Source of the DNA: an uncultured Paracoccus sp.
GTDB taxonomy: Bacteria > Pseudomonadota > Alphaproteobacteria > Rhodobacterales > Rhodobacteraceae
Direction: 5' to 3'
Assembly (NCBI RefSeq): GCF_937873615.1
Contig: NZ_CALMYP010000065.1
Location: 97,542 to 161,541, forward strand
DNA: 64,000 bases
Below the pieces are notes generated by a model, which saw nothing but the letters and a program-made list of their open reading frames with translations, was not told the DNA's origin and made no database searches. The translations under genes were made by a program, and so were the position numbers. This document shows, piece by piece, positions 1,345 through 16,896 of the stretch. The number at the start of each line of letters is the position of its first letter. The first letter of the stretch is position 1.

Positions 1345-1863
1345 TCAGCCTGTCGGAGAAGTCAGGCTGTCGCGCAGCCGGCGCAGCATGTCACGCATCC
1401 GGTCCAGGTCCTCATCATCGAGGACCGCGAAAAGATCCCCGACCATTTCCAGATGCTCGGCGGCAAGCACCTCGAAGAAGGCCGCCCCGTCCTCGGTCAG
1501 CCGGACCGAGACCCGGCGGCGATCCTCGTCCGAGAGCAGCCGCTCGACCATGCCATCCTGGACCAGACGGTTGACCACGGCGGTCGCGTTTCCGTTCGAG
1601 ATCAGCAACATGCGCGAAAGTTCCGTCATGGTCAGCCCGTCGCGGCGACGGTGCAGCATGGCCATGACATCGAAACGCGGCAGGGTCGTGTCATGGCTGA
1701 CACGCAGGAACTCGCGCAGCCGGCCTTCGACCTGACGGGTCACGCCCAGCATCCGGATCCATAGCCTCAGCCGGCGCATGGCCAGCGGATCGCTGACCGG
1801 ATCGTTTCGGACCGGCCTTGCGGTTTCAGGGGCGACCGGTTCCGCGCTCCGCTCTGATGTCAT
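1345..1863 (-). CDS. MarR-family transcriptional regulator, of the subtype usually found in salicylyl-/anthraniloyl-CoA hydroxylase clusters
   Basis: LRLWIRML...TTLPRFDVMAML...GLTMTELSRMLLISNGNATAVVNRL...DRR winged helix; last gene on the Rieske operon strand. Confidence 0.88.
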   Translation of the reverse strand: MTSERSAEPVAPETARPVRNDPVSDPLAMRRLRLWIRMLGVTRQVEGRLREFLRVSHDTTLPRFDVMAMLHRRRDGLTMTELSRMLLISNGNATAVVNRLVQDGMVERLLSDEDRRRVSVRLTEDGAAFFEVLAAEHLEMVGDLFAVLDDEDLDRMRDMLRRLRDSLTSPTG

Positions 1864-1942
1864 CTGAATCCGTCCATGGCCGAAAATGCTTTGAGGACGA
1901 ATATTTCAGATTGTGCGCATTTTATCCAGCCGTGAGGTTGCG

Positions 1943-2662
1943 TCAGATCGGCACAGTTCCGATGCTGGCGCCACCGCAGACGAACAGCGTCTGGCCGGTG
2001 ATAAAGCCGGCCTCTGGTTCGGCCAGGAACATGAAGGCGCGGGTCACATCCTCGACCCTGCCCAGCCGACCGACCGGGATGCGGCGCGAGAGGTCTTCCT
2101 CCTGCGCGCTGCCCTTCGGCACGATGCCCCAGAAATTGTCGGTCAGGATCGGGCCGGGGGCGACCACGTTCACGGTGATGCCATGCTCGGCCAGTTCCAG
2201 CGCCCAGGTCCGGGCCATGCCGATCATCCCTGCCTTGGACGCCGAATAGGCCGTCCGCGTCTTCGCCCCAAGCGCCGCTCGCGAGGCGTTGAACAGGATC
2301 CGCCCGAAGCCCCGCGCCTTCATCGCCGGCAGAAACGCCTGCGTCAGCGCCAGTGCCGAGCCGAGGTGAAGCTGGGTCAGCGCCAGCATATCGGCGGGCC
2401 GGGCATCCTCGATCAGGTTGGGCAGGATGATGCCCGCATTCTGGACGAAATGCGTGACCTCATGCCGGGCGGCGATATCGGCCCCGGCCTTCTCGACGGC
2501 ATCGGGGTCGGACAGATCGCAGATGAGATGTTCCACATCTGCCGCCTCGCCCGGATGGCGCGCCAGCGACACCACATGCCAGCCGCGCGCTACCATCGCC
2601 GCCGCCAGATCGGCGCCGATCCCCTTGTTGCCGCCGGTGATGACGGCGGTGTAGCCGCTCAT
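1943..2662 (-). CDS. Short-chain dehydrogenase/reductase (SDR)
   Basis: TGGNKGIG Rossmann motif, NAG, YSASK catalytic motif, NVVAPG. Start moved to the ATG at 2662, which overlaps the upstream TGA (ATGA). Confidence 0.9.
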   Translation of the reverse strand: MSGYTAVITGGNKGIGADLAAAMVARGWHVVSLARHPGEAADVEHLICDLSDPDAVEKAGADIAARHEVTHFVQNAGIILPNLIEDARPADMLALTQLHLGSALALTQAFLPAMKARGFGRILFNASRAALGAKTRTAYSASKAGMIGMARTWALELAEHGITVNVVAPGPILTDNFWGIVPKGSAQEEDLSRRIPVGRLGRVEDVTRAFMFLAEPEAGFITGQTLFVCGGASIGTVPI

Positions 2663-3126
2663 GGCAGCAACTGGATATTGCCGAAAGCGGCGTCGCAATT
2701 GAGGATGTCGACGCGCTTGCCGGCGATGCGGATGCCCTCAGGCGTGGCCTTCAGATCGTGGGTCACGGTCAGCGCCAGCAATTGCTGTTCGTCGAGCCGC
2801 GTTTCCACATAATGCATCTTGGTCGCAACACGGGCGCTGTCCTCGGTCAGTTCCAGGATCCGGGGCCGGTTCAGCACATGGTGACAGCGGCTTTTCGGCT
2901 TCTGGCTGAAGGTGCGCGCACCGTGCAGGCGTTCGATCCGCAAGCGCAGCATGAAATTGTCCTCATGCAGCAGCGAGGTTTCATTCACCGGATCCTGCTG
3001 GTTCCAGTTCAGCGGCATCCAGTAGACCGCATTCGGCAGCCAGAGGTTCAGCCAGTCGTGATACTGACCCTCGTCCAGCATCCAGGCCTCGTCATGGATG
3101 AAGTCGATCACCTCGTCCCGGTTCAT
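2659..3126 (-). CDS. Aromatic ring-hydroxylating oxygenase, beta subunit
   Basis: FIHDEAWMLDEGQYHDWLNLW...YWMP...LRIERL...KRVDILNCD; overlaps the alpha-subunit stop by 4 bp. Confidence 0.9.
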   Translation of the reverse strand: MNRDEVIDFIHDEAWMLDEGQYHDWLNLWLPNAVYWMPLNWNQQDPVNETSLLHEDNFMLRLRIERLHGARTFSQKPKSRCHHVLNRPRILELTEDSARVATKMHYVETRLDEQQLLALTVTHDLKATPEGIRIAGKRVDILNCDAAFGNIQLLP

Positions 3127-4442
3127 GCCGCACCCCCGATCATGAAGCGCTTCCAGGCATCGAACTGGTTGCGCATCTGGCGTTCCGTGGTGCCGTTCAG
3201 CACCGCCTCCTCCGAAAAGTCCTCACCGTCTTCATAGAGCCGCTGGATATTCACCCATTCCAGCCCGTCGGCCATCAGCCCTTCCTGCGCACGCTCATAC
3301 ATCTCCAGGTCGTCATGGCCGACCATCGAGGTGGGCGCATTGATCATCCGGTTATACATCGCCGTGCGCGCGGTCAGCTCCGAGGGCGCCCCGTCGAGTG
3401 CGAAGATCCAGCTTTCCACCAGCGTCTTGTCGGGGCCGAGCGGGATGAAGTTCCGCAATTGCTGGATCGGTCCCTTGATCATGATATTGGGGAAATAGAC
3501 GGTATTGTGCCGGTTCTCGCCCAGAATCGCATTCGCGCGTTCCTCGCCATAAGCGGCGACCATGGCGTCAAGATAGCCGGGGATGTCGGAATAGGCGGAA
3601 TGGATCGAGTGATGCACCCCCGTATGTCCGTGACCATTGGGCCAGGTGCGGATGCCCATATTCTCGAAGAACTCATAGGGCGACATGAAGGGGGCGATGA
3701 TCTCCATCGCCGCGGGCGTGGGCGTGCCCTCGGGCTTCTCCATCTCCTCCCAGATCTTCACGGCGGTGCCGGCGCTGGATTCATGGGCGACCATCGGGTG
3801 GCAGGTGTCGGTCTGGTTCTCGACCAGCATCTTCCAGTTGCACTTGTGCATATAGCGCAGGGGGGCGCCGGCCACGGTCAGTTTCCCCTCGGGAGAGCGA
3901 TCGACCATATTGTCGAGCGACGAGAGGGAATCGCCGAAGAATTCCTCGAAACCGATGCCCTCGGGCGCCAGCCGGGCGAAGATGAAACCGCGATAATTCA
4001 TCATCGCGCCGACCGGGGCGAGGCCATGCGATGCCTCGGTCTCCTCCAACCCCGTGCCCTCGTAACCCTTCTTCAGCGGGATCGCGAGCAGGCAGCCATC
4101 GGTCTTGAAGGACCAGGCGTGATAGGGGCAGCGGAAGAACTTTCCGGTATTGCCGGCCTTGTCGATGACGATCTTGGTGCCCTTGTGCGGGCAGCGGTTA
4201 TAAAGAACGTGAATCTCGTTATCGGTATGGCGCACCATCAGCAAAGGCTGGTCGCCGATCTGGGCGGTGATGTAATCGCCCTTGTTCGGGGTCTGGCTGT
4301 CATGGCCGATATAGACCCAGACATTGCGGAACAGGTGCCGCATCTCCAGCGCATAGACCTCGGGGCTGGTATAGACATCGCGATGCACCTGCTGCGGTCG
4401 GATCAGGGCATCGACGCGGGATTTCAGGTCGGCTTCGGTCAT
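3123..4442 (-). CDS. Rieske aromatic ring-hydroxylating oxygenase, alpha subunit
   Basis: Rieske ligands CPHKG...CPYHAW; mononuclear Fe motif ENQTDTCHPMVAH; distal DDLEMYE. Confidence 0.93.
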   Translation of the reverse strand: MTEADLKSRVDALIRPQQVHRDVYTSPEVYALEMRHLFRNVWVYIGHDSQTPNKGDYITAQIGDQPLLMVRHTDNEIHVLYNRCPHKGTKIVIDKAGNTGKFFRCPYHAWSFKTDGCLLAIPLKKGYEGTGLEETEASHGLAPVGAMMNYRGFIFARLAPEGIGFEEFFGDSLSSLDNMVDRSPEGKLTVAGAPLRYMHKCNWKMLVENQTDTCHPMVAHESSAGTAVKIWEEMEKPEGTPTPAAMEIIAPFMSPYEFFENMGIRTWPNGHGHTGVHHSIHSAYSDIPGYLDAMVAAYGEERANAILGENRHNTVYFPNIMIKGPIQQLRNFIPLGPDKTLVESWIFALDGAPSELTARTAMYNRMINAPTSMVGHDDLEMYERAQEGLMADGLEWVNIQRLYEDGEDFSEEAVLNGTTERQMRNQFDAWKRFMIGGAA

Positions 4443-4452
4443 GGCTTACTCC

Positions 4453-5418
4453 TTACAGGTCAAGCTTGAGACGGTCGGACAGCGCGCGGCTCACGCAGAT
4501 CTGCATGACCTTGCCGGAGTCGCGCTCTTCCTTCGACAGCACCACGTCGCGGTGATCGGGCGTGCCTTCCAGCACATCGGTCTGGCAGATGCCGCAATCG
4601 CCGCGCTGGCAGTCATAGACCAGGTCCACACCGGCGGCTTCCAGCGCCTCGATGATGGTCTGGTCGGCGGGGACGGTAATGACCTGCCCGGTCGAGGCGA
4701 TCTCGACTTCGAAGGGCCGGTCGCCGGCCTCGTGAGAGGTATTCTCGAACAGTTCGGCATGGAACTGTGCATCCGCGCGGCCAGCGGCTTCCATCGCGGC
4801 GCGGGTGGCATCGATCATCGGCTTCGGGCCGCAGACATAGACATGGGCGGCAGGGTCGGCCTTGGCAATCAGTTCTGCCACCGGGACCGGGCCGCCGGCC
4901 TGATCGTCGTGATGAAGCTGAATGCGCGCGCCATGGGCCGCGACCAGCCGGTCGGCAAAGGCCGCAGCGGCAGGGGAGCGGCTGGCATAAACCATGCGGA
5001 AGTCACGCCCACGGGCCGTAAGCGCCGAAGCCATGGCAATGAGCGGCGTCACCCCGATGCCACCGGCCAGAAGCAGAACCGGCCCCTGCCCATCGTCCAG
5101 CGGAAAATGGTTCTTCGGCCCGGTCGCATCGAGCCGGTCGCCCGCCTGCAAACCGTGCATGAAGCGAGAGCCGCCATTGCCCGCATCCTCCCGTCGGACC
5201 CCGAGCAGATAGGCGGCGGGCGCTGCCGCATCCCCCGCGAAATCGATCAGCGAATAGGCGTTATGCCCACCTTCCGGTAACGTCACCTCGATATGCGCGC
5301 CAGCCTCGAACGGGGGCAGCGGCGCCCCGTCGGGTCGGACCAGTTCGATTTCCCGGATCAGCTCTCCGACCTCGTCGGTGCGCCGGACGATCAGCGTCAA
5401 ATCGGTCAATGCCTTCAT
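4453..5418 (-). CDS. PDR/VanB-family FMN/[2Fe-2S] oxygenase reductase
   Basis: GAHIEV, NAYSL, GGSRFMH, AGGIGVTP, YVCGP, and C-terminal ferredoxin CQRGDCGIC...CVS. Confidence 0.92.
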   Translation of the reverse strand: MKALTDLTLIVRRTDEVGELIREIELVRPDGAPLPPFEAGAHIEVTLPEGGHNAYSLIDFAGDAAAPAAYLLGVRREDAGNGGSRFMHGLQAGDRLDATGPKNHFPLDDGQGPVLLLAGGIGVTPLIAMASALTARGRDFRMVYASRSPAAAAFADRLVAAHGARIQLHHDDQAGGPVPVAELIAKADPAAHVYVCGPKPMIDATRAAMEAAGRADAQFHAELFENTSHEAGDRPFEVEIASTGQVITVPADQTIIEALEAAGVDLVYDCQRGDCGICQTDVLEGTPDHRDVVLSKEERDSGKVMQICVSRALSDRLKLDL

Positions 5419-5475
5419 CCCTGCTGGGCGTGGGTTATGGGAAAACTATCCGCCAAGGATGGGCCGCCCGTCAAG

Positions 5476-5504
5476 TTTTAAGTTTGAAATAGTGAAAATT
5501 CATA
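5476..5504. promoter_or_regulatory. AT-rich composite operator, copy 1 (TTTTAAGTTTGAAATAGTGAAAATTCATA)
   Basis: 24/29 identical to 6241-6269. Lies next to a minus-strand TTGACG-N18-GATAGT promoter candidate (5474-5445) for the Rieske operon. Confidence 0.6.
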
Positions 5505-5592
5505 CAAATTGGCTCGCGGTGAATATGTTTGGCGGCAGCCCGGGACCGGCTTAGTCTGTCCTGCACAAGGCAGGATCGCAGGGACGGAACGC

Positions 5593-6225
5593 ATGCCCGA
5601 CAACATTGATTTCAAACAGCTTGAGAACCTGGCCACGGCACTTCTGGCAAAGCCGGGGCCGGGCCGGCAGATCATTGCCATTACCGGCGCGCCGGGTTCC
5701 GGAAAGTCTACATTGGTGGAACGGCTGGCCGATACACTCGGCATGGATGCTGCCATTCTGCCCATGGACGGCTTCCATTACGACGATGCCGTGCTGGAAC
5801 AGATGGGACGTCGTCCATGGAAAGGCGCGCCCGATACCTATGACGTCGGCGGCTTGCGTAACATCCTTGCCCGCCTGCGCAATCCGGACGAAGGCGCGGT
5901 CGCCGTCCCGGTCTTCGATCGCGATCTTGAGATTTCGCGTGGCAGCGCCCGAATCATCGGCCCGGACGCCCGCCTGATTCTGGTTGAGGGCAATTATCTG
6001 CTGCTCAACATCGATCCCTGGCCCAGCCTGAGGCCTGCCTTCGACCTTACCATTCGTATCGAGGTTCCAGAACCAGAGCTGCGCCGGCGCCTGACCCGCC
6101 GCTGGCAAAGCTATGGCCTTACCGAAGCCGAGATCGCCTTCAAACTCGACAAGAACGACCTGCCAAACGGGCATATGGTCGTCAGCAACAGCGCCGCGCC
6201 TGACCATCTGATGCATGTCAAATAA
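5593..6225 (+). CDS. P-loop kinase of the YggC/FrcK (pantothenate/uridine kinase-like) family
   Basis: Walker A GAPGSGKST, LPMDGFHY, RKGAP.T.D-like segment, VEGNYLLL. Start placed at ATG 5593. Confidence 0.8.
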   Translation: MPDNIDFKQLENLATALLAKPGPGRQIIAITGAPGSGKSTLVERLADTLGMDAAILPMDGFHYDDAVLEQMGRRPWKGAPDTYDVGGLRNILARLRNPDEGAVAVPVFDRDLEISRGSARIIGPDARLILVEGNYLLLNIDPWPSLRPAFDLTIRIEVPEPELRRRLTRRWQSYGLTEAEIAFKLDKNDLPNGHMVVSNSAAPDHLMHVK

Positions 6226-6240
6226 GCATCTTCCGTATTT

Positions 6241-6269
6241 ATTTGAATTTAAAATAGTGAATATTCATA
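6241..6269. promoter_or_regulatory. AT-rich composite operator, copy 2 (ATTTGAATTTAAAATAGTGAATATTCATA)
   Basis: Contains the perfect palindrome TGAATATTCA (6258-6267); upstream of the TRAP operon; 24/29 match to 5476-5504. Confidence 0.6.
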
Positions 6270-6343
6270 TTTTTCTTGCCTGAAATATTCGCAGGTGGCA
6301 GGCTGGAATGGAGAATCGCAGCAAATCGCCACGGGAGAAAGAC

Positions 6344-7363
6344 ATGCGACTGACAGGGAAGTTCGTTCTGCCAAGCCTGCTGGCACTGGCCTTCGCGGCC
6401 GGCGCCAGTGCTCAGGAAACCACATTGCGGCTGTCGAACTGGCTGCCGCCCTCGCATCCCGTGGTGAAGGACATCATGGTCCCCTGGGCCGAGCAGGTGG
6501 CTGAGGCGACCGAAGGTCGCGTCGCCGTGCAGATCCTCGACGCACCGCTGGGCCCGCCGCCGGCGCATTTCGACCTCGTCGCCAGCGGCGCAGCCGATAT
6601 CGGTTTCTCGGCCCACAGCTATACGCCCGGCCGCTTCACCCTGACCGAGATCGCCGAGCTGCCCTTTCTGACGCCCAGCTCCGAGGCCAATTCGCTGGCG
6701 CTCTGGAATGTCTGGACCGAGATGCTGGCCGAGAAGAACGAACATGCCGGCGTCAAGGTGCTGGCGCTGTTCGGACATGGGCCGGGGCACCTCTTCACCA
6801 CCGACCGCGCAGTGACGCCGCTGAGCGAGTTGAGCGGCGCCAAGATCCGCGTCGCCGGTGCGATCACCGACCAGCTGGTGCAGGGCTTGGGCATGGTCTC
6901 GGTTCAGGCGCCGTCTTCGGAAAGCTATGAACTGCTGTCGAACGGGGTCGCGGACGGGATCGTCTTCCCTTACGAATCCGTCCCCTTCTTCCGGCTTGAC
7001 GACGTGGTCAAGAACGGCCTCCGGGTCGAGGGCGGGATGTATAACGTGTCCTTCTTCTTCGTCATGAACCAGGCCCGTTTCGACAGCCTGTCCGAGGCAG
7101 ACCGCGCCGCCATCGACAAGGTCTCGGGCGAGGCCCTGGTGCGCATGGCCGGCAAGGCCTGGGACGCGGCGGATGCCGCCGGACTGGCGGCACTGGAAGG
7201 CAAGGTCAGTTTCCACGACGCCACCCCCGAGGAACACGCCGTGATCGAGGAAGACGCAAAGGCGATCTATGACCGCGTTGCCCAGGGCTACGCCGCCAAG
7301 GGCGTGGATTTCGAGGCTGCGCTGGCAATGTTCCGTGACGAGCTTGGCAAGGCCGGGCAGTGA
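6344..7363 (+). CDS. TRAP transporter substrate-binding protein (DctP family, aromatic-acid type)
   Basis: Signal peptide ending ASA-QE; LRLSNWLPPSHP; GAKIRV with the conserved Arg; GGAG RBS before ATG 6344. Confidence 0.9.
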   Translation: MRLTGKFVLPSLLALAFAAGASAQETTLRLSNWLPPSHPVVKDIMVPWAEQVAEATEGRVAVQILDAPLGPPPAHFDLVASGAADIGFSAHSYTPGRFTLTEIAELPFLTPSSEANSLALWNVWTEMLAEKNEHAGVKVLALFGHGPGHLFTTDRAVTPLSELSGAKIRVAGAITDQLVQGLGMVSVQAPSSESYELLSNGVADGIVFPYESVPFFRLDDVVKNGLRVEGGMYNVSFFFVMNQARFDSLSEADRAAIDKVSGEALVRMAGKAWDAADAAGLAALEGKVSFHDATPEEHAVIEEDAKAIYDRVAQGYAAKGVDFEAALAMFRDELGKAGQ

Positions 7364-7839
7364 GGATCGAAAAGCTGCGGATGCGGGTCCGCACCGTCTC
7401 GGCCATCATCCTCGGGGTGATGCTGGTGGCGCTGACCTGCATCACGGTTCTCGATGTGGTCGGGCGCTACCTTTTCAACGCGCCGCTGTCCGGCGGGACC
7501 GAACTGACCGAGCTTCTGGTCATGGGCGTCATCTTCGCCGGCCTGCCGGCGATCAGCCTCGATGACGGCCATGTCACCGCCGACCTGCTGTCACAGAACC
7601 TCAGCCGGCGCGGGCGGACGATCCAGTTGTTCCTGGCCCGGCTTTGCGCGGTCATCGCGCTGTCGCTGGTGACGATGGAGATGTGGAAGCACGGCGCCCG
7701 GTTGAGCAGCTACAACCAGACCACAGTCTTCCTGCACATCCCGGTCGGGCTGATGGTGCAGGCTGCGGCGGCGATCTGCGGGTTGTCGACGCTCATCGTG
7801 GCGGTGCTGGCGCTGACCCGTGCCCCGCATGGCAATTAA
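7360..7839 (+). CDS. TRAP transporter small permease (DctQ)
   Basis: Four hydrophobic segments, DVVGRYLFNAPL, GHVTADLL; overlaps the dctP stop. Confidence 0.88.
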   Translation: MRIEKLRMRVRTVSAIILGVMLVALTCITVLDVVGRYLFNAPLSGGTELTELLVMGVIFAGLPAISLDDGHVTADLLSQNLSRRGRTIQLFLARLCAVIALSLVTMEMWKHGARLSSYNQTTVFLHIPVGLMVQAAAAICGLSTLIVAVLALTRAPHGN

Positions 7840-7855
7840 CGCATAAAGGGCGATC

Positions 7856-9142
7856 ATGGATTGGCCGATCGGAACTGCGATACTTTTCGCCATGCTCTTT
7901 GTCGGCGTGCCTATCGGCTTTGCGCTGACCTTGGTGGGCTTTGCCGGCGTGGCCAGCATCATCGGCATCAACCCGGCACTGGCAATGATCGGGCAAGTCT
8001 ATTCCGACAGCGGCCGCAGTTATACGCTGTCGGTGGTGCCGTTGTTCCTGCTGATGGGCAACATGATCGTGCAATCCAAGATTGCCGACGAGATCTATGA
8101 CGCCGCCAATGCCTGGTTGCGCCACCGCAAGGGCGGGCTGGCCATGGCCACCATCGTCGCCTGCGGCGGCTTCGGTTCGGTCTGCGGATCGTCGCTCGCC
8201 ACCGCCGCGACCATGGGCAAGATCGCCCTGCCAGCGATGCGCCGCCACGGCTATTCCGACCGGCTGGCGACCGGATCCATCGCGGCGGGTGGCACGCTTG
8301 GCATCATCATCCCGCCTTCGGTGATCCTGGTCATCTATGGCATCCTGACCCAGCAGGATATCGGCAAGCTGTTTCTGGCCGGGATCGTGCCGGGGCTGAT
8401 GGGGATCGTCGGTTACATGCTGGCGGTCCGGCTGTCGTTGTTCCTCCACCCTGAGCCGCTGGCGCCCCTGCCCCGGCTCAGCCTCATCGCCCGGATTCAC
8501 GCCACCCGAGGCGTCGCCCCGGCACTGGCGCTTTTCGCCTTCGTGCTGGGCGGGATCTATCTTGGCATCTTCACCGCGACCGAGGCCGCCGGCATGGGCG
8601 CAGGCGCCTCGATCCTGCTGACGGCGCTGCGCGGGCGGCTGACCTGGCGGGCGACGCTGGAAACGCTGTTCGACACTGGCAAGACCACGGCGGTGATGTT
8701 CTTCGTCCTGTTCGGGGCGCTCTATTTCCTGAACTACGTCAACCTCTCGGGGCTGTCGACCGATATCCGGGGTTGGGTGCTGGGGCTCGACCTGCCGCCC
8801 GTCGGCGTGATCCTGATGATCATGCTGATGCTGCTGGTTCTGGGCAGCCTGCTGGAAAGCCTGTCGATGGTCATGCTGATCACGCCGATCCTGTTTCCCA
8901 TCGTCACCGCGCTTGGCTTCGATCCGATCTGGTTCGGGGTCTTTCTGGTCGTCGCGACCGAGCTGAGCTATATCACCCCGCCCATGGGCATGAACGTCTT
9001 CGTGCTGCGGGTCGTCGCCCGCGACGTGCCCATCGGTGAAATCTTCCGGGGCGTGGTTCCCTTCGTGCTTCTGGATGTGTTACGGCTGCTTCTGCTGATC
9101 GGTTTCCCCATTCTGGTCCTGCTGATCCCCAACGCGATGTAG
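7856..9142 (+). CDS. TRAP transporter large permease (DctM)
   Basis: GSIAAGGTLGIIIPPS, TATEAA, ITPPMGMN motifs; highly hydrophobic. Confidence 0.92.
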   Translation: MDWPIGTAILFAMLFVGVPIGFALTLVGFAGVASIIGINPALAMIGQVYSDSGRSYTLSVVPLFLLMGNMIVQSKIADEIYDAANAWLRHRKGGLAMATIVACGGFGSVCGSSLATAATMGKIALPAMRRHGYSDRLATGSIAAGGTLGIIIPPSVILVIYGILTQQDIGKLFLAGIVPGLMGIVGYMLAVRLSLFLHPEPLAPLPRLSLIARIHATRGVAPALALFAFVLGGIYLGIFTATEAAGMGAGASILLTALRGRLTWRATLETLFDTGKTTAVMFFVLFGALYFLNYVNLSGLSTDIRGWVLGLDLPPVGVILMIMLMLLVLGSLLESLSMVMLITPILFPIVTALGFDPIWFGVFLVVATELSYITPPMGMNVFVLRVVARDVPIGEIFRGVVPFVLLDVLRLLLLIGFPILVLLIPNAM

Positions 9143-9151
9143 AGGCCACCC

Positions 9152-9604
9152 TTGCCGGATCCCGACACAGCCCATCCCGGCTTTCTCGAAAACTACACCC
9201 TGTTCCTGATGGCCGTCGCCAGTGCCCAGGTCAGCCGCAGCTTTCACGAGATTGCCGCCGCGCAGGGCCTTTCCGTCGCCGAATGGCGGGTGCTGGCCTG
9301 CCTGCACGATCTGGGCAGCGCCAGCGTGTCGGAGCTGGCGCGGCTGTCGCTGCTGGAACAGTCGCGGCTGACCCATTTGATCGGCCGCATCCAGAACCGC
9401 GGGCTGGTCCTGCGTCAGCGCAGCAACCGGAACCGGCGCAGCGTGCTGGTTCGACTGACCGACGAGGGGGCGAGACTGGCCGCCGATCTGGTCGCCCAGG
9501 CCAAGGCGCACGAGAGGCAGGCGGTCACCGACAAGCTCGGCCGTGCCGATACCGAGAAGCTGCACGAGATCCTGCGCAAGCTGATCGGGCATCCGCCGGT
9601 CTGA
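9152..9604 (+). CDS. MarR-family transcriptional regulator
   Basis: GLSVAEWRVLACL...VSELARLSLLEQSRLTHLIGR...NRRSVLVRLT. Confidence 0.88.
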   Translation: MPDPDTAHPGFLENYTLFLMAVASAQVSRSFHEIAAAQGLSVAEWRVLACLHDLGSASVSELARLSLLEQSRLTHLIGRIQNRGLVLRQRSNRNRRSVLVRLTDEGARLAADLVAQAKAHERQAVTDKLGRADTEKLHEILRKLIGHPPV

Positions 9605-9616
9605 CGAAGGCCCCGA

Positions 9617-10015
9617 TCAGTCGGGGATCACCGCCGTCGCCTCGATCTCGACCTTGGCGCGGTCCTCGACCAGGGCCACGACCTGCACCAGTGCCATGGC
9701 CGGATAGCTCTTGCCGATGACCTCGCGATAGGCCCGCCCGGTTTCTTTCAACGCCGCAAGGTATTCCGCCTTGTCGGTGACATACCAGGTCAACCGCACC
9801 AGATGTTCGGGCTTTGCCCCTGCCTCGGCCAGAATGGCCACGATGCTGCGCAACGCGGTTTCGACCTGAGCGGCAAAATCGTCGGTTTCAAACTCCTGAT
9901 CGGCGTTCCAGCCGACCACCCCGCCGGTAAAGACCATGCGCCCGCGTGCGGCAATGCCGTTCGAATAGCCGGGGGTCGCTTTCCAGCCCTTTGGGTGCAG
10001 CACCTCATGTTGCAT
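9617..10015 (-). CDS. RidA/YjgF-family enamine/imine deaminase
   Basis: GYSNGIAA.G, FTGGVVGW, YPAMALVQV..L, KVEIEATA. Confidence 0.9.
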   Translation of the reverse strand: MQHEVLHPKGWKATPGYSNGIAARGRMVFTGGVVGWNADQEFETDDFAAQVETALRSIVAILAEAGAKPEHLVRLTWYVTDKAEYLAALKETGRAYREVIGKSYPAMALVQVVALVEDRAKVEIEATAVIPD

Positions 10016-10424
10016 CGCATTGCTCCTTGAATTTCATCATCGTCTCGCGGATCCCGTCCGGCCACGGCGTGGCCTTTCCGCCATCCGAGACCCAGACAAC
10101 CGTCAGCATCGCCGCCAGCCGCTTCTCGCCATCGCAGTCTGCGCGCAGATCGAAAGCCGCGCTCGCGCCGCCGATGCGATGGATCTCCAATGTGAAATCC
10201 AGCAGGTCACCAAGGCGGGAAGGGGCGGAGAATTCGGCCTCGATGCGGACCGTCGGCACGCCCGTGCCCTCGTCGAGATGCATCCGGCGGAAGGGATAGC
10301 CGACGACTTCGGCAAAGAAGTTCTCGACGACCGAGTTGGTCATCTCGAAATAACGGGGATAGAAGACGATCCCCGCCGGATCGCAATGGTTGAACTCGAC
10401 CTGAATGCGACGGCGATAGATCAT
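10005..10424 (-). CDS. Acyl-CoA thioesterase (4-hydroxybenzoyl-CoA thioesterase/hotdog family)
   Basis: [14 protein letters not shown] hotdog motif; LGDLL.F. Confidence 0.88.
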
Positions 10425-11545
10425 GGCATTACACTTCGCGCGATGATCAGGCGCTGCACGTCGCTGGCACCTTCATAGATGCGCAGGGCGCGGATCTCTC
10501 GATAAAGCTCCTCGACCTTGACGCCATGCTTCACGCCGTCGCCGCCATGAAGCTGAACCGCCATGTCGATCACCTCCTGCGCGGCCTCGGTGGCGTAAAG
10601 CTTGGCCATCGCCGCCTCGCGGCTGATGCGCGACGCGCCCCGGTCCTTGGTCCAGGCGGCGCGATAGATCAGCAGCGCCGCCGCGTCGATCTTCAATGCC
10701 ATATCGGCCAGATGCCCCTGCACCATCTGCAACGAAGCCAGCGCCTCGCCCTGAATGCGGCGGCTGGCCGTTCGCGCGAGCGCCTCGTCAAAGGCCCGTC
10801 GCGCCATGCCAAGCGCCGCCGCGCCAACTGTCGGGCGGAACACGTCCAGAACCGACATGGCCAGCTTGAACCCCTGCCCCGGCTGGCCGATCAGCGCCGC
10901 ATCGGGCAGGAAGGCACCCTCCATCCGCAGGGTCGCCAGCGGATGCGGGGCGATCACCTCGATCCTCTCTGCGATGGAGAGGCCCGCAGTCTCTGCCGGC
11001 ATCAGGAAGGCCGACAGGCCGCGCGCGCCCGGCGCCTCGCCGGTGCGGGCGAAAATGACGTAAAGATCGGCGATGCCGCCGTTGGAGATATAGGTCTTCT
11101 CGCCGCTCAGGCGGTAGCCGCCCTCGACCTTCTCGGCGGTGGTCGTGGTGGCGGCCACGTCGGAACCCGATCCCGGCTCGGTCAGGGCGAAGGCTGAAAT
11201 CGCGGTGCCGGCGCGGGTGCGGTCCAGCCAGGCGCGTTGTTCGGGCGTGCCGAAAAGGCTGATCGCCCCCATGCCCAGCCCCTGCATGGCAAAGGCGAAA
11301 TCGGCAAGCGCATCGTGCCGGGCCAGCGTCTCTCGGATCAGGCAGAGCGTGCGCACGTCAAGCGCCTCGCCCCCCGAATGGCGCAGCCAGCCGCCCTGCC
11401 CAAGCGCCGCAACCAGCCCGCGACAGGCCGCGTCCACATCGCCATGATCGACCGGCAGATTGGCGGCGCACCAATCATCCAGCGCCGCCGCCAGGTCGCG
11501 GTGGTGATCCTCGAAAAACGGCCAATCCAGAAAACTGCGATCCAT
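10421..11545 (-). CDS. Acyl-CoA dehydrogenase family protein
   Basis: [12 protein letters not shown]-terminus typical of anthraniloyl-CoA clusters; [38 protein letters not shown]. Start moved to 11545. Confidence 0.9.
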
Positions 11546-11588
11546 AACCTTACCCAAATCCTGACCGGGGGCGCTTGCCCCTGCGTGG

Positions 11589-12401
11589 TCAATTCCCTTC
11601 GAAAACCGGCTTTTCCTTGCCGACAAAGGCGCGATAGGCGCGGGCGAAATCCTGTGTCTGCATACAGATCGCCTGCGCCTGCGCCTCGGCCTCGATGGCC
11701 TGTTCAAGACCCATGTTCCATTCCTGGTTCAGCTGGGTCTTGGTGATCCCATGGGCAAAGACCGGCCCCGCCGCGATGCGATGCGCCAGCTTTTGCGCCT
11801 CTGCCTCCAGCCCATCGGCGGGGTGCAGGCTGTTCCAGAACCCCCAGGCCGCACCTTCTTCGGCGCCCATCACCCGACCGGTATAAAGAAGCTCTGCCGC
11901 GCGGCCTTGGCCGATGATCCGGGGCAGCATGGCGCAGGCCCCCATGTCGCAGCCGGCAAGGCCGACGCGGGTGAACAGGAAGGCGCATTTCGCCTCGGGC
12001 GTTGCCAGCCGCAGATCCGAGGCCATGGCGATGATCGCCCCGGCCCCCACGCAGATCCCGTCCACCGCCGCGATCACCGGCTTGCCGCAGCCGATCATCG
12101 CCTTGACCAGATCGCCGGTCATGCGGGTGAAGGCCAGAAGCCCTTTCATGTCCATGCCGACCAGCGGGCCGATGATGTCATGCACATCCCCGCCCGAGCT
12201 GAAATTCCCGCCATTCGAGGCGAAGACGACCACATCGACATCACTTGCATAGGCCAGGGCACGGAACGTGTCGCGCAACTCGGCATAGCTTTCGAAGGTC
12301 AGCGGGTTCTTCCGCTCTGGCCGGTCGAGCCGGATGGTGGCGATGCGGTCGTGGCACTGCCAGAGGAAATGTTTCGGGGTGATCCCGGCCATCTCGGTCA
12401 T
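11589..12401 (-). CDS. Enoyl-CoA hydratase family protein
   Basis: [39 protein letters not shown]; AAGGA RBS before ATG 12401. Confidence 0.9.
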
Positions 12402-12431
12402 GTCATATCCTTGGTTCACGGTTTCGGGCGC

Positions 12432-13172
12432 TCATATCTCGCCACCGGCAATGGCAATGGCCTGCCCGTTGATCGCGTCCGAGCCTGCCCCGCAGAGCCA
12501 GAGCGCGGCGGCACTGACCTCGGCTGGCTGAACCAGCCGGGCCTGCGGGTTGGATGCGGTCAGCGCCGAAAGCGCCTGCGCCCGGTCGCCGCCGGTCTTC
12601 TTCATGATATTGGCGATGGAACGCTCGGTCATTTCGGTGTCGAGAAAACCGGGGCAGAGCGCATTCGCCGTCACTGGCCGCTTCGCCACTTCCAGCGCCA
12701 GGCTGCGGATCAGCCCGACCACGCCATGTTTCGCCGCCGCATAGGGCGCGACATAGCGATAGCCCTTCAGCCCGGCGGTCGAGGCGATGGCGATCAGCCG
12801 ACCCCAGCCGTCCATCCGCAGAAGCCCTTCGCGCAGGGTCAGGAAGGTGCCGGTCAGGTTGACTGCCAGCATGGCATTCCAGTGATCCAGATCGACACGG
12901 TGAAATGGCGCGCTATTGGCCGCACCGGCATTGGCGATGACGATATCGCAGGGGCCGGCGGCGTCGAACATGGCCCGGGTGCTGGCCTCGTCGGTCACAT
13001 CGGCGGTCACGGCAAGGGCACCGGGCAGCGTGGCCGCCAGGCTTTCCAGCGGTTCCGCGCGACGCCCGGCAATGACGACACGCGCACCGGCACCGGCAAA
13101 GGCGCGTGCCAGATCGGCACCCACGCCCGAGCCCCCGCCCGTGATCAAAACCTGCTTGCCTGCAAGCGCCAT
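12432..13172 (-). CDS. SDR, 3-hydroxyacyl-CoA dehydrogenase-like
   Basis: ITGGGSGVG, NAG, YAAAKHG, NALCPGF.DT. Start moved to 13172. Confidence 0.9.
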   Translation of the reverse strand: MALAGKQVLITGGGSGVGADLARAFAGAGARVVIAGRRAEPLESLAATLPGALAVTADVTDEASTRAMFDAAGPCDIVIANAGAANSAPFHRVDLDHWNAMLAVNLTGTFLTLREGLLRMDGWGRLIAIASTAGLKGYRYVAPYAAAKHGVVGLIRSLALEVAKRPVTANALCPGFLDTEMTERSIANIMKKTGGDRAQALSALTASNPQARLVQPAEVSAAALWLCGAGSDAINGQAIAIAGGEI

Positions 13173-13270
13173 TGCCTGCCCCCTCCACTCGCCCTGCTCA
13201 ACGAACCGTGCCATAGCCATAAGTTTATATCAAACACAAATAGTTTGAACACGAAGCACCTTCTGCGCGC

Positions 13271-14458
13271 TCAAAAGAACGCCTGCAACCCGGTCTGGGC
13301 GCGACCGAGGATCAGCGCATGGACATCATGCGTGCCCTCATAGGTATTCACGGTTTCCAGGTTCACCATGTGGCGGAAGACCGGGAATTCGTCGGAAATG
13401 CCGTTGCCACCATGCATGTCGCGCGCCATACGCGCGATTTCCAGCGCCTTGCCGCAATTGTTGCGCTTGATGAGAGAGATCATCTCGGGCGCCATCTTGC
13501 CCTCTTCGAACAACCGCCCGACACGCAGCGCGGCCTGAAGCCCGATGGTGATTTCGGTCATCATGTCGGCCAGCTTCTTCTGGTAAAGCTGGGTCTGCGC
13601 AAGAGGCCGGTCGAATTGCTTGCGGTCAAGCCCGTATTGCCGCGCCGCATGCCAGCAGGTCTCGGCAGCCCCCATCGCCCCCCAGGCAATGCCGTAACGC
13701 GCGCGGTTCAGGCAGCCGAAGGGGCCGGCAAGGCCCTCGATCTCCGGGAAGATCGCGCTTTCCGGAATCTCGACATTCTCCATGACGATCTCGCCGGTGA
13801 TCGAGGCGCGCAAGGACAGCTTGCCTTCGATTTTCGGCGCCGACAGCCCCTTCATGCCCTTTTCCAGCACGAAGCCTCGGATCTTGCCGCCATGCGCCTC
13901 GGACTTGGCCCAGACCACGAAGACATCGGCAAGGGGAGCGTTCGAGATCCACATCTTGGTGCCGTTCAGCACATAGCCGCCCGGAACCTTTCGCGCCACC
14001 GTGCGCATGCCGCCCGGATCGGACCCCGCATCCGGTTCGGTCAGGCCGAAACAGCCGATCCACTCGCCCGAGGCCAGCTTGGGCAGGTATTTCTGCCGCT
14101 GCTCTTCCGAGCCATAGGCATGGATCGGATACATCACCAACGAGGACTGCACCGACATCATGCTGCGATAGCCGCTGTCCACACGCTCGACCTCGCGCGC
14201 GACAAGGCCATAGGCGACATATCCCGCGCCGATGCCGCCATATTCCTCGGGCACGGTCACGCCCAACAGGCCCTGCGCGCCCATTTCGGCGAAGATCTCG
14301 GGGTCGGTCTGCTCGTTGCGGAAAGCCTCGCGGACGCGCGGTTCCAGCTTCGACTGCGCATAGGCGCGGGCGCTGTCGCGGATCATTCGTTCTTCGCTGC
14401 TCAACTGCTGATCCAGCAGGAAGGCATCGTCCCAGACGAGCTTGTTGGTGTCTTTCAT
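13271..14458 (-). CDS. gcdH: Glutaryl-CoA dehydrogenase
   Basis: W.D.FLLDQQL..EERMIRD; [19 protein letters not shown]; [14 protein letters not shown]; [11 protein letters not shown]; [18 protein letters not shown]. Confidence 0.92.
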
Positions 14459-14468
14459 TATCCTGTCC

Positions 14469-16817
14469 TCATCCCCGCATATGCTGGCCGGGGGCGGCCT
14501 TGCGCTGGAGTTCCAGCAGTTTCTCGCGCGCCTTCTCGGCCTCTCGGAAAGCCTGCGCCCCGCCTGCGGCATAGGGCTTCGGCCAGGCCTTGCGGTTCTG
14601 CGCGCCATACCAGGCCGCGGCCTGATTGGCGAAGAAGGGGTTCGACAGATGCGGTCGGCCAATGGCGACCAGATCGGCGCGGCGGGTGTGCAGGATGGTA
14701 TTGACCTGCCCCGGCTCGGTAATGGCGCCCACGGCCATGGTGGCCATCTTCGGCACATTGCGCACGGCCTCGGCCAGGTGGGTCTGGAACATGCGGCCAT
14801 AGATCGGCTTCTGGTCCGGCACGGTCTGCCCGGCAGACACGTCGATCAGGTCGCAGCCGGCATCGCGGAAGGCCTCGGCAATGGCGAAAAGATCCGCCTC
14901 GCTCAGCCCGCCCTCTTTCCAGTCGCTGCCCGAGACGCGCACCGACATCGGCCGATCCTCTGGCCAGACGGCGCGCATGGCCGCGAAGACCTCCAACGGA
15001 AAGCGCAGGCGGTTTTCAACGCTGCCGCCATAATCATCGCCGCGCAGATTGGTCAGCGGCGACAGGAACGAGGCCAGCAGGTAGCCATGGGCGCAATGCA
15101 GTTCCAGCATGTCGAAGCCGGCCCGCGCGGCGCGTTCGGTCGCCTGCACGAAATCGGCCTTGATCCGGTCCATGCCCGCCCGATCCAGTTCCGCCGGAAC
15201 CTGGCTTACGCCCTCGAACCACGGAATCGGAGAGGCCGAGACAAGCGGCCAATTCTCCCCGCTCTCGGCAATCGGATGATCCATCCTTTCCCAGCCAAGC
15301 TGAGTCGAGCCCTTGCGACCCGCATGTCCCAACTGCATCGCCACCTTGGCGCCGGTATTGTCGTGGATGAAATCGACGATCTCGGTCCAACGACGTTCCT
15401 GCTCGTCGGTCCACATGCCGGGGCAGCCCTGCGTGATGCGGGCATCGGCGGAAGGACAGGTCATTTCGGTGAAGATCAGCCCCATGCCGCCGGTGGCATG
15501 GCTGCAATAATGCACCTTCAGCCAGTCGGTCGGATTGCCGTCGCGGTCGCAGCTGTATTGCGCCATGGGCGACATGACGACACGGTTCATCAACTCCATC
15601 CCGCGCAGGCGGAAGCGCGAGAACATCGGCGTCGGCCGGGTCTCGCGCAGATCCTCGCCGGTTTCGCGCAGGTGACGAGAATACCATTCGTCATCGGCGC
15701 AGCGCACGAAATCGGGGTCACGCACGATCAGGTTGTCATAGGTGATCGACTTGGCGCGGCACATGACCACCATGGCGAACTGGTATGGCTCCATATCCCA
15801 GGACCGGTTCATATGCTCGAACCAGGCGAGCGACACATCGGCATTGTGCTGGATGATCTGGCAGGGCGTCCGCCGGGCCGTGTCATAGGCGCGAAAGGCC
15901 GCCTGCACATCGGTCTCGGCATGTTCCAGCAGCGCATCCGACAGCGCAATGGCGCATTCCATCGCCAGCTTGGTCCCCGACCCGATCGAGAAATGCGCGC
16001 TCGCCTTCGCATCGCCCAGGATGACGATATTGTCGACGAACCAGTTCTCGCAGAAGACGCGCGGGAAATTGCGCCAGTTCGAGCGGTTCAGCAGCAGCGG
16101 ATGGCCCTGCAATTCCTCGGCAAAGATCGCCTCAAGCTTGGCCTTGGAACCTTCCTCGTCGAATTCCTGAAATCCGTGGCCCTGCCAGGTGGCTTCGTCC
16201 ATCTCGAAGACCCAGGTCGAGCGGTCCTTCTGATACTGATAGCAATGCGCGACCATCTGGCCATGCTCGGTCTCGCGGAAGAAATAGTTGAACTCGTCCA
16301 TGGGCCGGCTGGAGCCCATCCAGCAGAAACGGTTCGATTTCCAGACCGTGCTTGGCTGGAAACCATCCTTGTAATGCTCGCGAATGGCCGAGTTGATGCC
16401 GTCGCCGGCCACGATCACGTCGGAATCGGCGAAGCGGGTCTTCAGGTCCTCGGGCTTGATCTCGACCCCGAATTCCAGGCGCACACCCAGTTCGGCGCAG
16501 CGGTCCTGCAGGATGGTCAGCAGGGTCTGGCGCGAGGTGCCGCAGAAGCCGTTGCCGGCACAGCGCATTTCCTGCCCCTTGAAATGCACGGCAACGTCGT
16601 CCCAATAGGCGAATTCGTCGCGGATGCGGTCGAAAACCGGCTTGTCGCGGCTGAGAAACTGGTCGAGCGTCTCGTCCGAGAACACCACCCCGAAGCCGAA
16701 CGTATCGTCCGGCTGGTTGCGCTCATAAACCTCGATATCCCAGTCGGGCCGCGCCTTCTTGGTCAGAAGCGCAGTATACAGCCCGCCCGGGCCACCGCCG
16801 ATTACCGTGATTTTCAA
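14469..16817 (-). CDS. Bifunctional salicylyl-CoA 5-hydroxylase / 2-aminobenzoyl-CoA monooxygenase-reductase (AbmA-like; FAD monooxygenase fused to an OYE-type domain)
   Basis: N-terminal [37 protein letters not shown]; C-terminal OYE motifs [41 protein letters not shown] start at 16817 with GGAGG 5 nt upstream. Confidence 0.9.
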
Positions 16818-16874
16818 TGCAACCTCCTGCGAATCGAAGTTCATGGGCTGACCAATCCCTAACATGCCTGAGTT

Positions 16875-16896
16875 TATATTTTAAGCTCAAAATATA
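16875..16896. promoter_or_regulatory. 22-bp near-perfect palindrome TATATTTTAAGCTCAAAATATA, candidate MarR operator
   Basis: Differs from its reverse complement at only 2 positions; about 60 bp upstream of the abmA-like start; core is 12/16 identical to the sites at 5475 and 6240. Confidence 0.65.

Follow-up and report, generated by a model that had tools for sequence, protein, structure and literature searches.

We analyzed a 64,000-nucleotide stretch of DNA (hereafter the window) from an uncultured Paracoccus sp. (contig NZ_CALMYP010000065.1, positions 97,542 to 161,541), near the beginning of which five minus-strand genes (1345-5418) encode a reductase, the alpha and beta subunits of a Rieske oxygenase, a short-chain dehydrogenase/reductase (SDR) and a MarR regulator. 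[quoted passage not shown] The basis for this assignment is homology, conservation of the active site, gene content, synteny and operator conservation. Because the window begins inside the locus, the 20 kb lying upstream were taken in too, and positions in that extended record are marked L002.

Layout of the five-gene module

The initial annotation of this DNA had described a set of reductase, alpha, beta, SDR and MarR genes converging on an IorB-like gene, and all five minus-strand open reading frames (ORFs) do carry the domains named there. The genes, with the lengths of their products in amino acids (aa), are the following.

4453-5418, minus: iadC, reductase, 321 aa (Pfam NAD_binding_1 and Fer2)
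3123-4442, minus: iadD, Rieske alpha (catalytic) subunit, 439 aa (Rieske and Ring_hydroxyl_A)
2659-3126, minus: iadE, Rieske beta subunit, 155 aa (Pfam Ring_hydroxyl_B)
1943-2662, minus: iadJ-like SDR, 239 aa from ATG 2662 (Pfam adh_short)
1345-1863, minus: MarR1 regulator, 172 aa (Pfam MarR_2)
3-1337, plus: 3' part of iadB (IorB-like, DUF6537; NCBIfam PRK08312, 568 bits, cut-off 348)

The GC content at third codon positions is 0.78-0.83 in all five module ORFs and thus of the coding type. The alpha and beta genes share an ATGA (3123-3126), and so do the beta stop and the SDR start codon at 2662; these overlaps agree with the initial annotation, but the spacer from the end of the reductase gene to the start codon of alpha, given there as 11 bp, measured 10 nt (4443-4452). 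ATG 2662 is most likely the SDR start; the longest ORF, beginning at TTG 2698, was rejected as probably too long. The 79-bp spacer between the SDR and MarR1 contains a promoter-like site (1946-1919), so that co-transcription of MarR1 with the module is not assured. The convergence on the IorB-like gene was also seen, the MarR1 stop (1345) and the plus-strand stop of that gene (1337) being 7 bp apart.

The alpha subunit keeps the active site of IadD

When the alpha subunit was compared with all solved structures, the best matches were 9O71_A (E 6e-170, 569 bits) and 7YLS_B (E 2e-168, 564 bits), while the next solved oxygenase, HcaE, reached 138 bits. The literature assigns 9O71 and 7YLS to Variovorax paradoxus as its IadD/IadE complex, the enzyme with which IAA degradation begins.

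A maximum-likelihood tree was built from 50 alpha proteins, including as references IacC and AntA of Acinetobacter baumannii, BenA/XylX of pDK1, NdoB of NAH7 and BphA1 of Rhodococcus. The alpha subunit groups with Paracoccus and Gemmobacter proteins within a 43-member clade of iad gene neighbourhoods, which also contains the alpha subunit of the R. pomeroyi megaplasmid operon, and all the references fall outside this clade, beyond a branch with 99% support. In the phylogeny proposed in the initial annotation, therefore, the protein did not join a characterized non-indole oxygenase but took its place among the proteins from loci with iad synteny. It is 86% identical to IadD of P. saliphilus and 65% to that of R. 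pomeroyi; among named genomes, Paracoccus aurantiacus comes closest (93% IadD identity). The IacC reference was drawn from a complete iacR-HABICDEFG cluster verified with Pfam, and the AntA reference reaches its NCBIfam equivalog cut-off. The first A. baumannii match (H50), a candidate for IacC, turned out to be AntA, and the same record contained IacC at another position.

The metal-ligand and IAA-pocket residues of Variovorax IadD were taken from Ma et al.: C85, H87, C106 and H109 of the Rieske center, H216, H221 and D377 at the mononuclear iron, and N210, L211, F251, H311, K322, R329 and Y362 in the pocket. Both the Rieske ligands (C84, H86, C105 and H108) and the 2-His-1-carboxylate iron ligands (H215, H220 and D378) are conserved in the alpha subunit. 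Eight of the nine published pocket residues are identical, among them N209, F252, H312, K323, R330 and Y363, and the sole change is Q210 in place of L211. The metal and pocket residues are invariant across 42 alphaproteobacterial members of the clade, in which the position of L211 is always occupied by Gln. In the sister clade, on the other hand, N replaces F251 (F252 here) and H replaces K322 (K323 here).

The beta subunit, the reductase and the dehydrogenase

The partner proteins point to the same system. The best solved match of the beta subunit is 7YLS_A (IadE; E 1.2e-34, runner-up 5.6e-07), and that of the reductase is 7YLR (E 3.6e-80, 273 bits), ahead of the phthalate dioxygenase reductase (PDR) 2PIA with 206 bits. 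7YLR was deposited as "Ferredoxin"; we take it to be Variovorax IadC, since its accession is adjacent to 7YLS, although the code is not confirmed in the paper. The reductase is of the PDR/VanB type, with an FNR-like NAD-binding domain, flavin mononucleotide (FMN) and a C-terminal plant-type [2Fe-2S] domain, and it is 66% and 45% identical to the proteins at the IadC position of P. saliphilus and R. pomeroyi, respectively, and 34% identical to IacF.

For comparison we used the best 80 related loci from a scan of the contigs of species genomes, all with at least 74% identity. About 60 of these 80 have the order iadR <-> iadCDEFGHIJ, as in Variovorax, and are called canonical below. With the last SDR of the ~60 canonical loci, the SDR of the module shares 58-78% identity. 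At the IadJ position of the iadCDEFGHIJ operon the identity is 77% for P. saliphilus and 53% for R. pomeroyi, whereas that to IacE is 26%. The SDR is therefore assigned as the positional orthologue of IadJ, which in Variovorax is annotated as an SDR (PMC12852158). IadCDE carries out the first oxidation of IAA, and IadJ the second by a dehydrogenase mechanism (bioRxiv 10.1101/2025.10.25.684584). By analogy, the four coupled genes iadCDE-J would correspond exactly to the two-step oxidation unit of that Variovorax work.

The rest of the iad pathway lies upstream

The complete iadB encodes 505 aa; its start lies upstream of the window and is preceded by a gene for a 715-aa IOR-alpha-like protein (iadA). 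Conway et al. (PMC9613470) described iadA and iadB as exclusive markers of iad loci, whereas iacA, iacB and iacI mark iac loci. A minus-strand operon in the upstream DNA comprises genes for a thiolase-like protein, a DUF35-SDR fusion protein, a cyclase (cyclase/amidase) and an AMP-ligase, which by sequence appear to correspond to IadG, IadH, IadI and IadF as annotated in Variovorax. The iadA, iadB, iadG, iadH, iadI and AMP-ligase genes are found within 10 kb upstream of the module, and together with an IadR orthologue (see below) all lie within 20 kb. The products of iadG, iadH, iadI and iadJ are 60-80% identical to those of the genes at the same positions in canonical loci.

When IacA, IacB and IacI of A. 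baumannii were searched by tblastn against the whole genome, no match was obtained at E 1e-5. [quoted passage not shown] Its proposal of an indole-type acid as the substrate is supported by the same best matches, the conserved IAA pocket and the iad marker genes.

Two further observations concern this upstream region. The AMP-ligase gene is the only one in the locus (L002 11998-13665, minus; 89597-91264 of the contig, G000:C65), and its product matches NCBIfam PRK06155 with 805 bits, above the cut-off. About 2 kb past this gene lies an amidase gene (L002 8542-9894, plus), the product of which is 32% identical to IacH of A. baumannii and possibly an indole-3-acetamide-type hydrolase.

Proposed pathway and its alternatives

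If the chemistry of the Variovorax work is carried over, IadC would use its FMN and [2Fe-2S] cluster to pass electrons from NAD(P)H on to the Rieske center in IadD3E3, the mononuclear iron of IadD would add oxygen at the C2/C3 bond of the IAA indole ring, and IadJ would oxidize the hydrated product to dioxindole-3-acetate. The enzymes of the upstream operon (IadG thiolase, IadH DUF35-SDR, IadI cyclase/amidase and the acyl-coenzyme A (CoA) ligase) would then remove the side chain and open the ring to yield anthranilate, which the adjacent CoA-dependent cluster probably consumes. A tripartite ATP-independent periplasmic (TRAP) transporter encoded next door probably imports IAA. The IadR orthologue would act on TATGAA-N2-TTCATA boxes before iadC, dctP and iadA, with IAA as the probable inducer.

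Several points weigh against this assignment. The alpha subunit is only about 57% identical to the characterized Variovorax IadD (over 427 residues, counted by hand on the PDB alignment). The tree does not include IadD from Variovorax, Bradyrhizobium or Achromobacter, and the link to the characterized enzyme therefore rests on the pairwise PDB match; a search for IadD in the Variovorax replicons of the plasmid collection yielded just a 42% paralogue. Since L211 is replaced by Gln in every alphaproteobacterial member, the preferred substrate could be an analogue of IAA. The AMP-ligase shares only ~33% identity with the enzyme that occupies the IadF position in canonical loci, and the genome contains no better candidate, making its orthology to IadF uncertain; it may be a non-orthologous replacement, or act on another acid such as anthranilate. 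The first product of IadCDE is itself disputed, being either oxindole-3-acetic acid (oxIAA; PMC10374108) or a C10H9NO3 lactone (bioRxiv 10.1101/2025.10.25.684584). Finally, the habitat is wastewater or activated sludge, not a plant or an alga.

Some of these points would also fit the same enzyme family and pathway acting on a physiological substrate other than IAA, namely a related aryl- or indolyl-carboxylate encountered in wastewater, for example 4-chloro-IAA, indole-3-propionate, indole-3-carboxylate or phenylacetate-like compounds: the Gln found in all 42 alphaproteobacterial members, the ~57% identity to the characterized enzyme, the CoA ligase differing from canonical IadF, and the occurrence of the DNA in wastewater and sludge metagenomes (8 studies). 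We consider such a substrate unlikely, because the conserved pocket residues include K323 and R330, because the IadR orthologue retains S28 and R46 and its closest solved relative, 3CDH, binds IAA at 0.24 uM (PMC9613470), and because the genes for the later steps form the set that converts IAA to anthranilate. A classical ring dihydroxylation of the benzoate/anthranilate/salicylate type (BenABC-BenD-like), with the SDR as a cis-diol dehydrogenase, would explain why the gene set equals benABCD and why BenA and AntA are the best NCBIfam names for the alpha subunit. However, the alpha subunit stays far below the cut-offs of these models (BenA, 205 bits against 781; AntA, 162 against 672; likewise HcaE, 154 against 830) and is 29% identical to AntA and 31% to BenA/XylX across the 99% supported branch; moreover, the reductase is PDR-type with a C-terminal Fer2 domain rather than BenC-type, and the SDR does not come close to the diol dehydrogenase families, so that dihydroxylation is very improbable. 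An iac-type pathway via catechol, in which alpha/beta and the SDR would be IacC/IacD and IacE, hardly deserves consideration even though a Rieske pair is accompanied by SDR, reductase and MarR genes in iac loci such as that of A. baumannii too, because the identities to IacC, IacD and IacE are 27, 28 and 26%, IacA, IacB and IacI are without a match in the genome, and the iad markers iadA/iadB are present.

Regulators and operator-like boxes

Three MarR regulators are encoded at the locus, namely MarR1 of the module, an IadR-type protein (MarR2) and a MarR on the iadA side. The regulatory features outside the module are as follows.

9152-9604, plus: iadR orthologue, MarR2, 150 aa (3CDH 2.5e-31; 7KFO 1.3e-21)
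L002 16993-17505, minus: third MarR, divergent from iadA, resembling 3CJN/7KYM
5474-5445, minus: iadC promoter-like -35/-10 pair, TTGACG-18-GATAGT (promoter scan)
5491-5504: operator-like box AGTGAAAATTCATA, just upstream of the iadC -35/-10-like pair
6256-6269: second operator-like box, 39-52 bp upstream of dctP, near-identical to the iadC box
L002 17561-17574: third box, TATGATTTTTCATA, in the MarR/iadA spacer, 44-57 bp before iadA

The structure 3CDH is IadR of R. pomeroyi, which binds IAA with a dissociation constant of 0.24 uM (PMC9613470), and 7KFO is MarR_73 of Variovorax. MarR2 conserves S28 and R46, the residues for the IAA carboxylate, and judging from its sequence it is a probable IAA-responsive repressor. 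The best solved match of MarR1, in contrast, is 3BOQ (1e-22), the IadR structures being weaker (3CDH 1.5e-11, 7KFO 1e-4). The initial annotation was thus right in placing a MarR in the module, but an IAA-sensing regulator of the IadR type is not found there, the true IadR orthologue being encoded at 9152-9604. The position of MarR1 is shared only with two Paracoccus loci (L003 and L004), and homologues with 42-45% identity occur within the aminobenzoyl-CoA-type clusters of two other related loci (L025 and L050). On the R. pomeroyi DSS-3 megaplasmid (L083), none of the three MarRs has a homologue within 16 kb of the iad operon. That iadCDEFGHIJ operon is also without iadA/iadB within 16 kb, and a 2.8-kb stretch upstream of its iadC carries no annotation in the gene table used.

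The promoter and box upstream of iadC form a block (5445-5504) that is conserved in L003 and L004. An 18-mer, AAATAGTGAAwATTCATA, occurs in the window just at 5487-5504 and 6252-6269 and is invariant in the same two loci; because it was built from the two sites found, its chance estimate is not independent, while the enrichment across 74 related loci is. In 57 of these 74 loci, TATGAA-N2-TTCATA with at most two mismatches was found within 260 bp upstream of iadC, and its density there was 3.0 per kb as compared with 0.03 per kb elsewhere in the loci, i.e. ~100-fold higher. Since iadR is the regulator gene that most consistently neighbours iadC, we infer that TATGAA-N2-TTCATA is the IadR operator, and the assignment of each MarR to its box is likewise putative. 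The motif emerged from comparing the regions upstream of iadC and dctP with each other and with the related loci, an inverted-repeat search upstream of iadC having given none. For MarR1, a search for an operator common to the SDR-MarR1 spacer, a palindrome at 16875-16896 and L025/L050 revealed no convincing shared motif. Another palindrome, of 24 bp (GATGATTATTCA followed by TGTATAATCATC; L002 16915-16938), lies before iadG and differs from the box in the iadA spacer.

Transporter genes, a kinase-like gene and the adjacent CoA cluster

Between iadC and iadR, and beyond iadR, the window contains the following genes.

5593-6225 (about), plus: P-loop kinase-like gene (Walker A GAPGSGKST; weak Pfam AAA_18/PRK matches)
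6308-7363, plus: TRAP gene dctP (Pfam DctP)
7360-7839, plus: TRAP gene dctQ (Pfam DctQ)
7856-9142, plus: TRAP gene dctM (Pfam DctM)
9617-16865, minus: aminobenzoyl-CoA-type cluster (Pfam: RidA, thioesterase, two acyl-CoA dehydrogenases, enoyl-CoA hydratase, SDR, fusion gene)

The kinase-like gene lies in what looks like an 889-bp gap separating iadC from dctP, which leaves 5419-5592 as the true control region of iadC. The kinase-like protein is 82-86% conserved in L003/L004 when read in frame, as compared with 71-76% in the opposite frame; its GC content (~58%) is below that of the neighbours, and it is conserved only in these two closest Paracoccus loci. TRAP genes adjoin iadC or iadR in many related loci, and the closest solved TRAP binding protein to DctP is 4P56; we infer that the system takes up IAA.

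In the CoA cluster, the fusion of an FAD-monooxygenase and an old yellow enzyme (14469-16865; 798 aa) reaches 1013 bits with NCBIfam PRK08255, a model for salicylyl-CoA 5-hydroxylase/oxidoreductase, just below its cut-off of 1078. Linkage between an iad locus and an aminobenzoyl-CoA-type cluster recurs in L025, L050 and L076, and the cluster plausibly disposes of the anthranilate from the iad pathway. The palindrome at 16875-16896 (22 bp, perfect-looking, TATATTTTAAG followed by CTCAAAATATA, in the ACMR-like promoter) precedes the CoA cluster.

It is conceivable, although we put this forward only tentatively, that the iad pathway has here been re-cut into modules under layered MarR control. 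The iadCDE-J genes would form a self-contained "IAA inactivation" operon with its own 3BOQ-like MarR, through which the upper pathway may be linked to the degradation of anthranilate via CoA. Control of iadC, the TRAP genes and iadAB would fall to IadR via the shared TATGAA-N2-TTCATA, and IadAB could feed an oxo-acid intermediate into the CoA branch.

Distribution and significance

DNA near-identical to 1345-5418 (81-100% of sampled words) was detected in metagenomes of wastewater and activated sludge and in a single aquatic one, which come from 8 studies; there was no RNA run among the listed datasets. The IadD family as a whole matched more than 500 species genomes and occurs with high frequency among Alphaproteobacteria of the sea and of wastewater. 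Work on this family has been done mostly in Variovorax, a genus of plant roots. Databases label this gene set only "aromatic ring-hydroxylating dioxygenase", and the assignment ties it to a definite role, that of inactivating and catabolizing the auxin IAA. The compact iadCDE-J form is a natural, ready-made four-gene cassette for both oxidative steps, and the conserved operator together with the three MarRs provides testable handles on the regulation of auxin catabolism outside the rhizosphere.

Comparison with known systems

The iac locus (iacHABICDEFG-R of Pseudomonas putida 1290 and A. baumannii) degrades the same hormone and likewise contains genes for a Rieske pair, along with those for an SDR, a reductase and a MarR. 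However, its first oxygenase is IacA, a flavoenzyme resembling acyl-CoA dehydrogenases and missing from the present genome, the iac pathway ends at catechol, and its IacC, IacD and IacE are 26-28% identical to the proteins of the module.

The sister group to the IadD proteins is found in clusters of pCAR1 and Burkholderia (40-42% identity; support for the branch, 99%). They resemble the module in their PDR-type reductase and in the order of the first three genes, but differ in the pocket, where N and H stand for F252 and K323, and in the genes downstream. On pCAR1.3 (L092, 6988-12518) and in Burkholderia sp. PAMC 26561 (L091), the cluster encodes a reductase, alpha, beta, an isochorismatase-family hydrolase, an SDR and a dienelactone hydrolase. 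We also observed, on the Pantoea agglomerans plasmid p33.1_1 (L090, 11045-18089), an IadD-like alpha subunit with 54% identity, the full IAA pocket and Q at the position of L211, in a cluster of reductase, alpha, beta, FAD oxidoreductase, amidase, aromatic amino acid transporter and LysR genes; this cluster may represent a hybrid auxin or indole-acetamide route.

The canonical alphaproteobacterial loci of P. saliphilus and R. pomeroyi DSS-3 share the operator consensus upstream of iadC with the present locus, and the P. saliphilus plasmid p242883 has the same TRAP and iadR neighbours. These loci keep iadCDEFGHIJ together, whereas here iadJ directly follows iadE, iadFGHI lie elsewhere, and the ligase has the low identity to canonical IadF described above. 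The compact iadCDE-J form was found in ~10 of the 80 best related loci, at several separate places on the IadD tree, and in all five compact-form genomes checked iadG was located elsewhere in the genome.

In V. paradoxus the locus reads iadR | iadABCDEFGHIJK..., and the protein families of IadA, B, C, D, E, G, H, I, J and IadR all match those found here, as do the IadD metal ligands, the eight pocket residues and S28/R46 of IadR; anthranilate is the expected end product. The Variovorax system differs in that iadCDE-J, iadG-H-I-ligase and iadAB are three separate operons here, in that an ATP-binding cassette transporter (IadK-N) takes the place of the TRAP system, in having two MarRs instead of three, and in IadD itself (~57% identity, L211 there and Q here). 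The locus belongs to the already described iad system, of which it is a modest architectural variant that leaves the known picture of the pathway unchanged.

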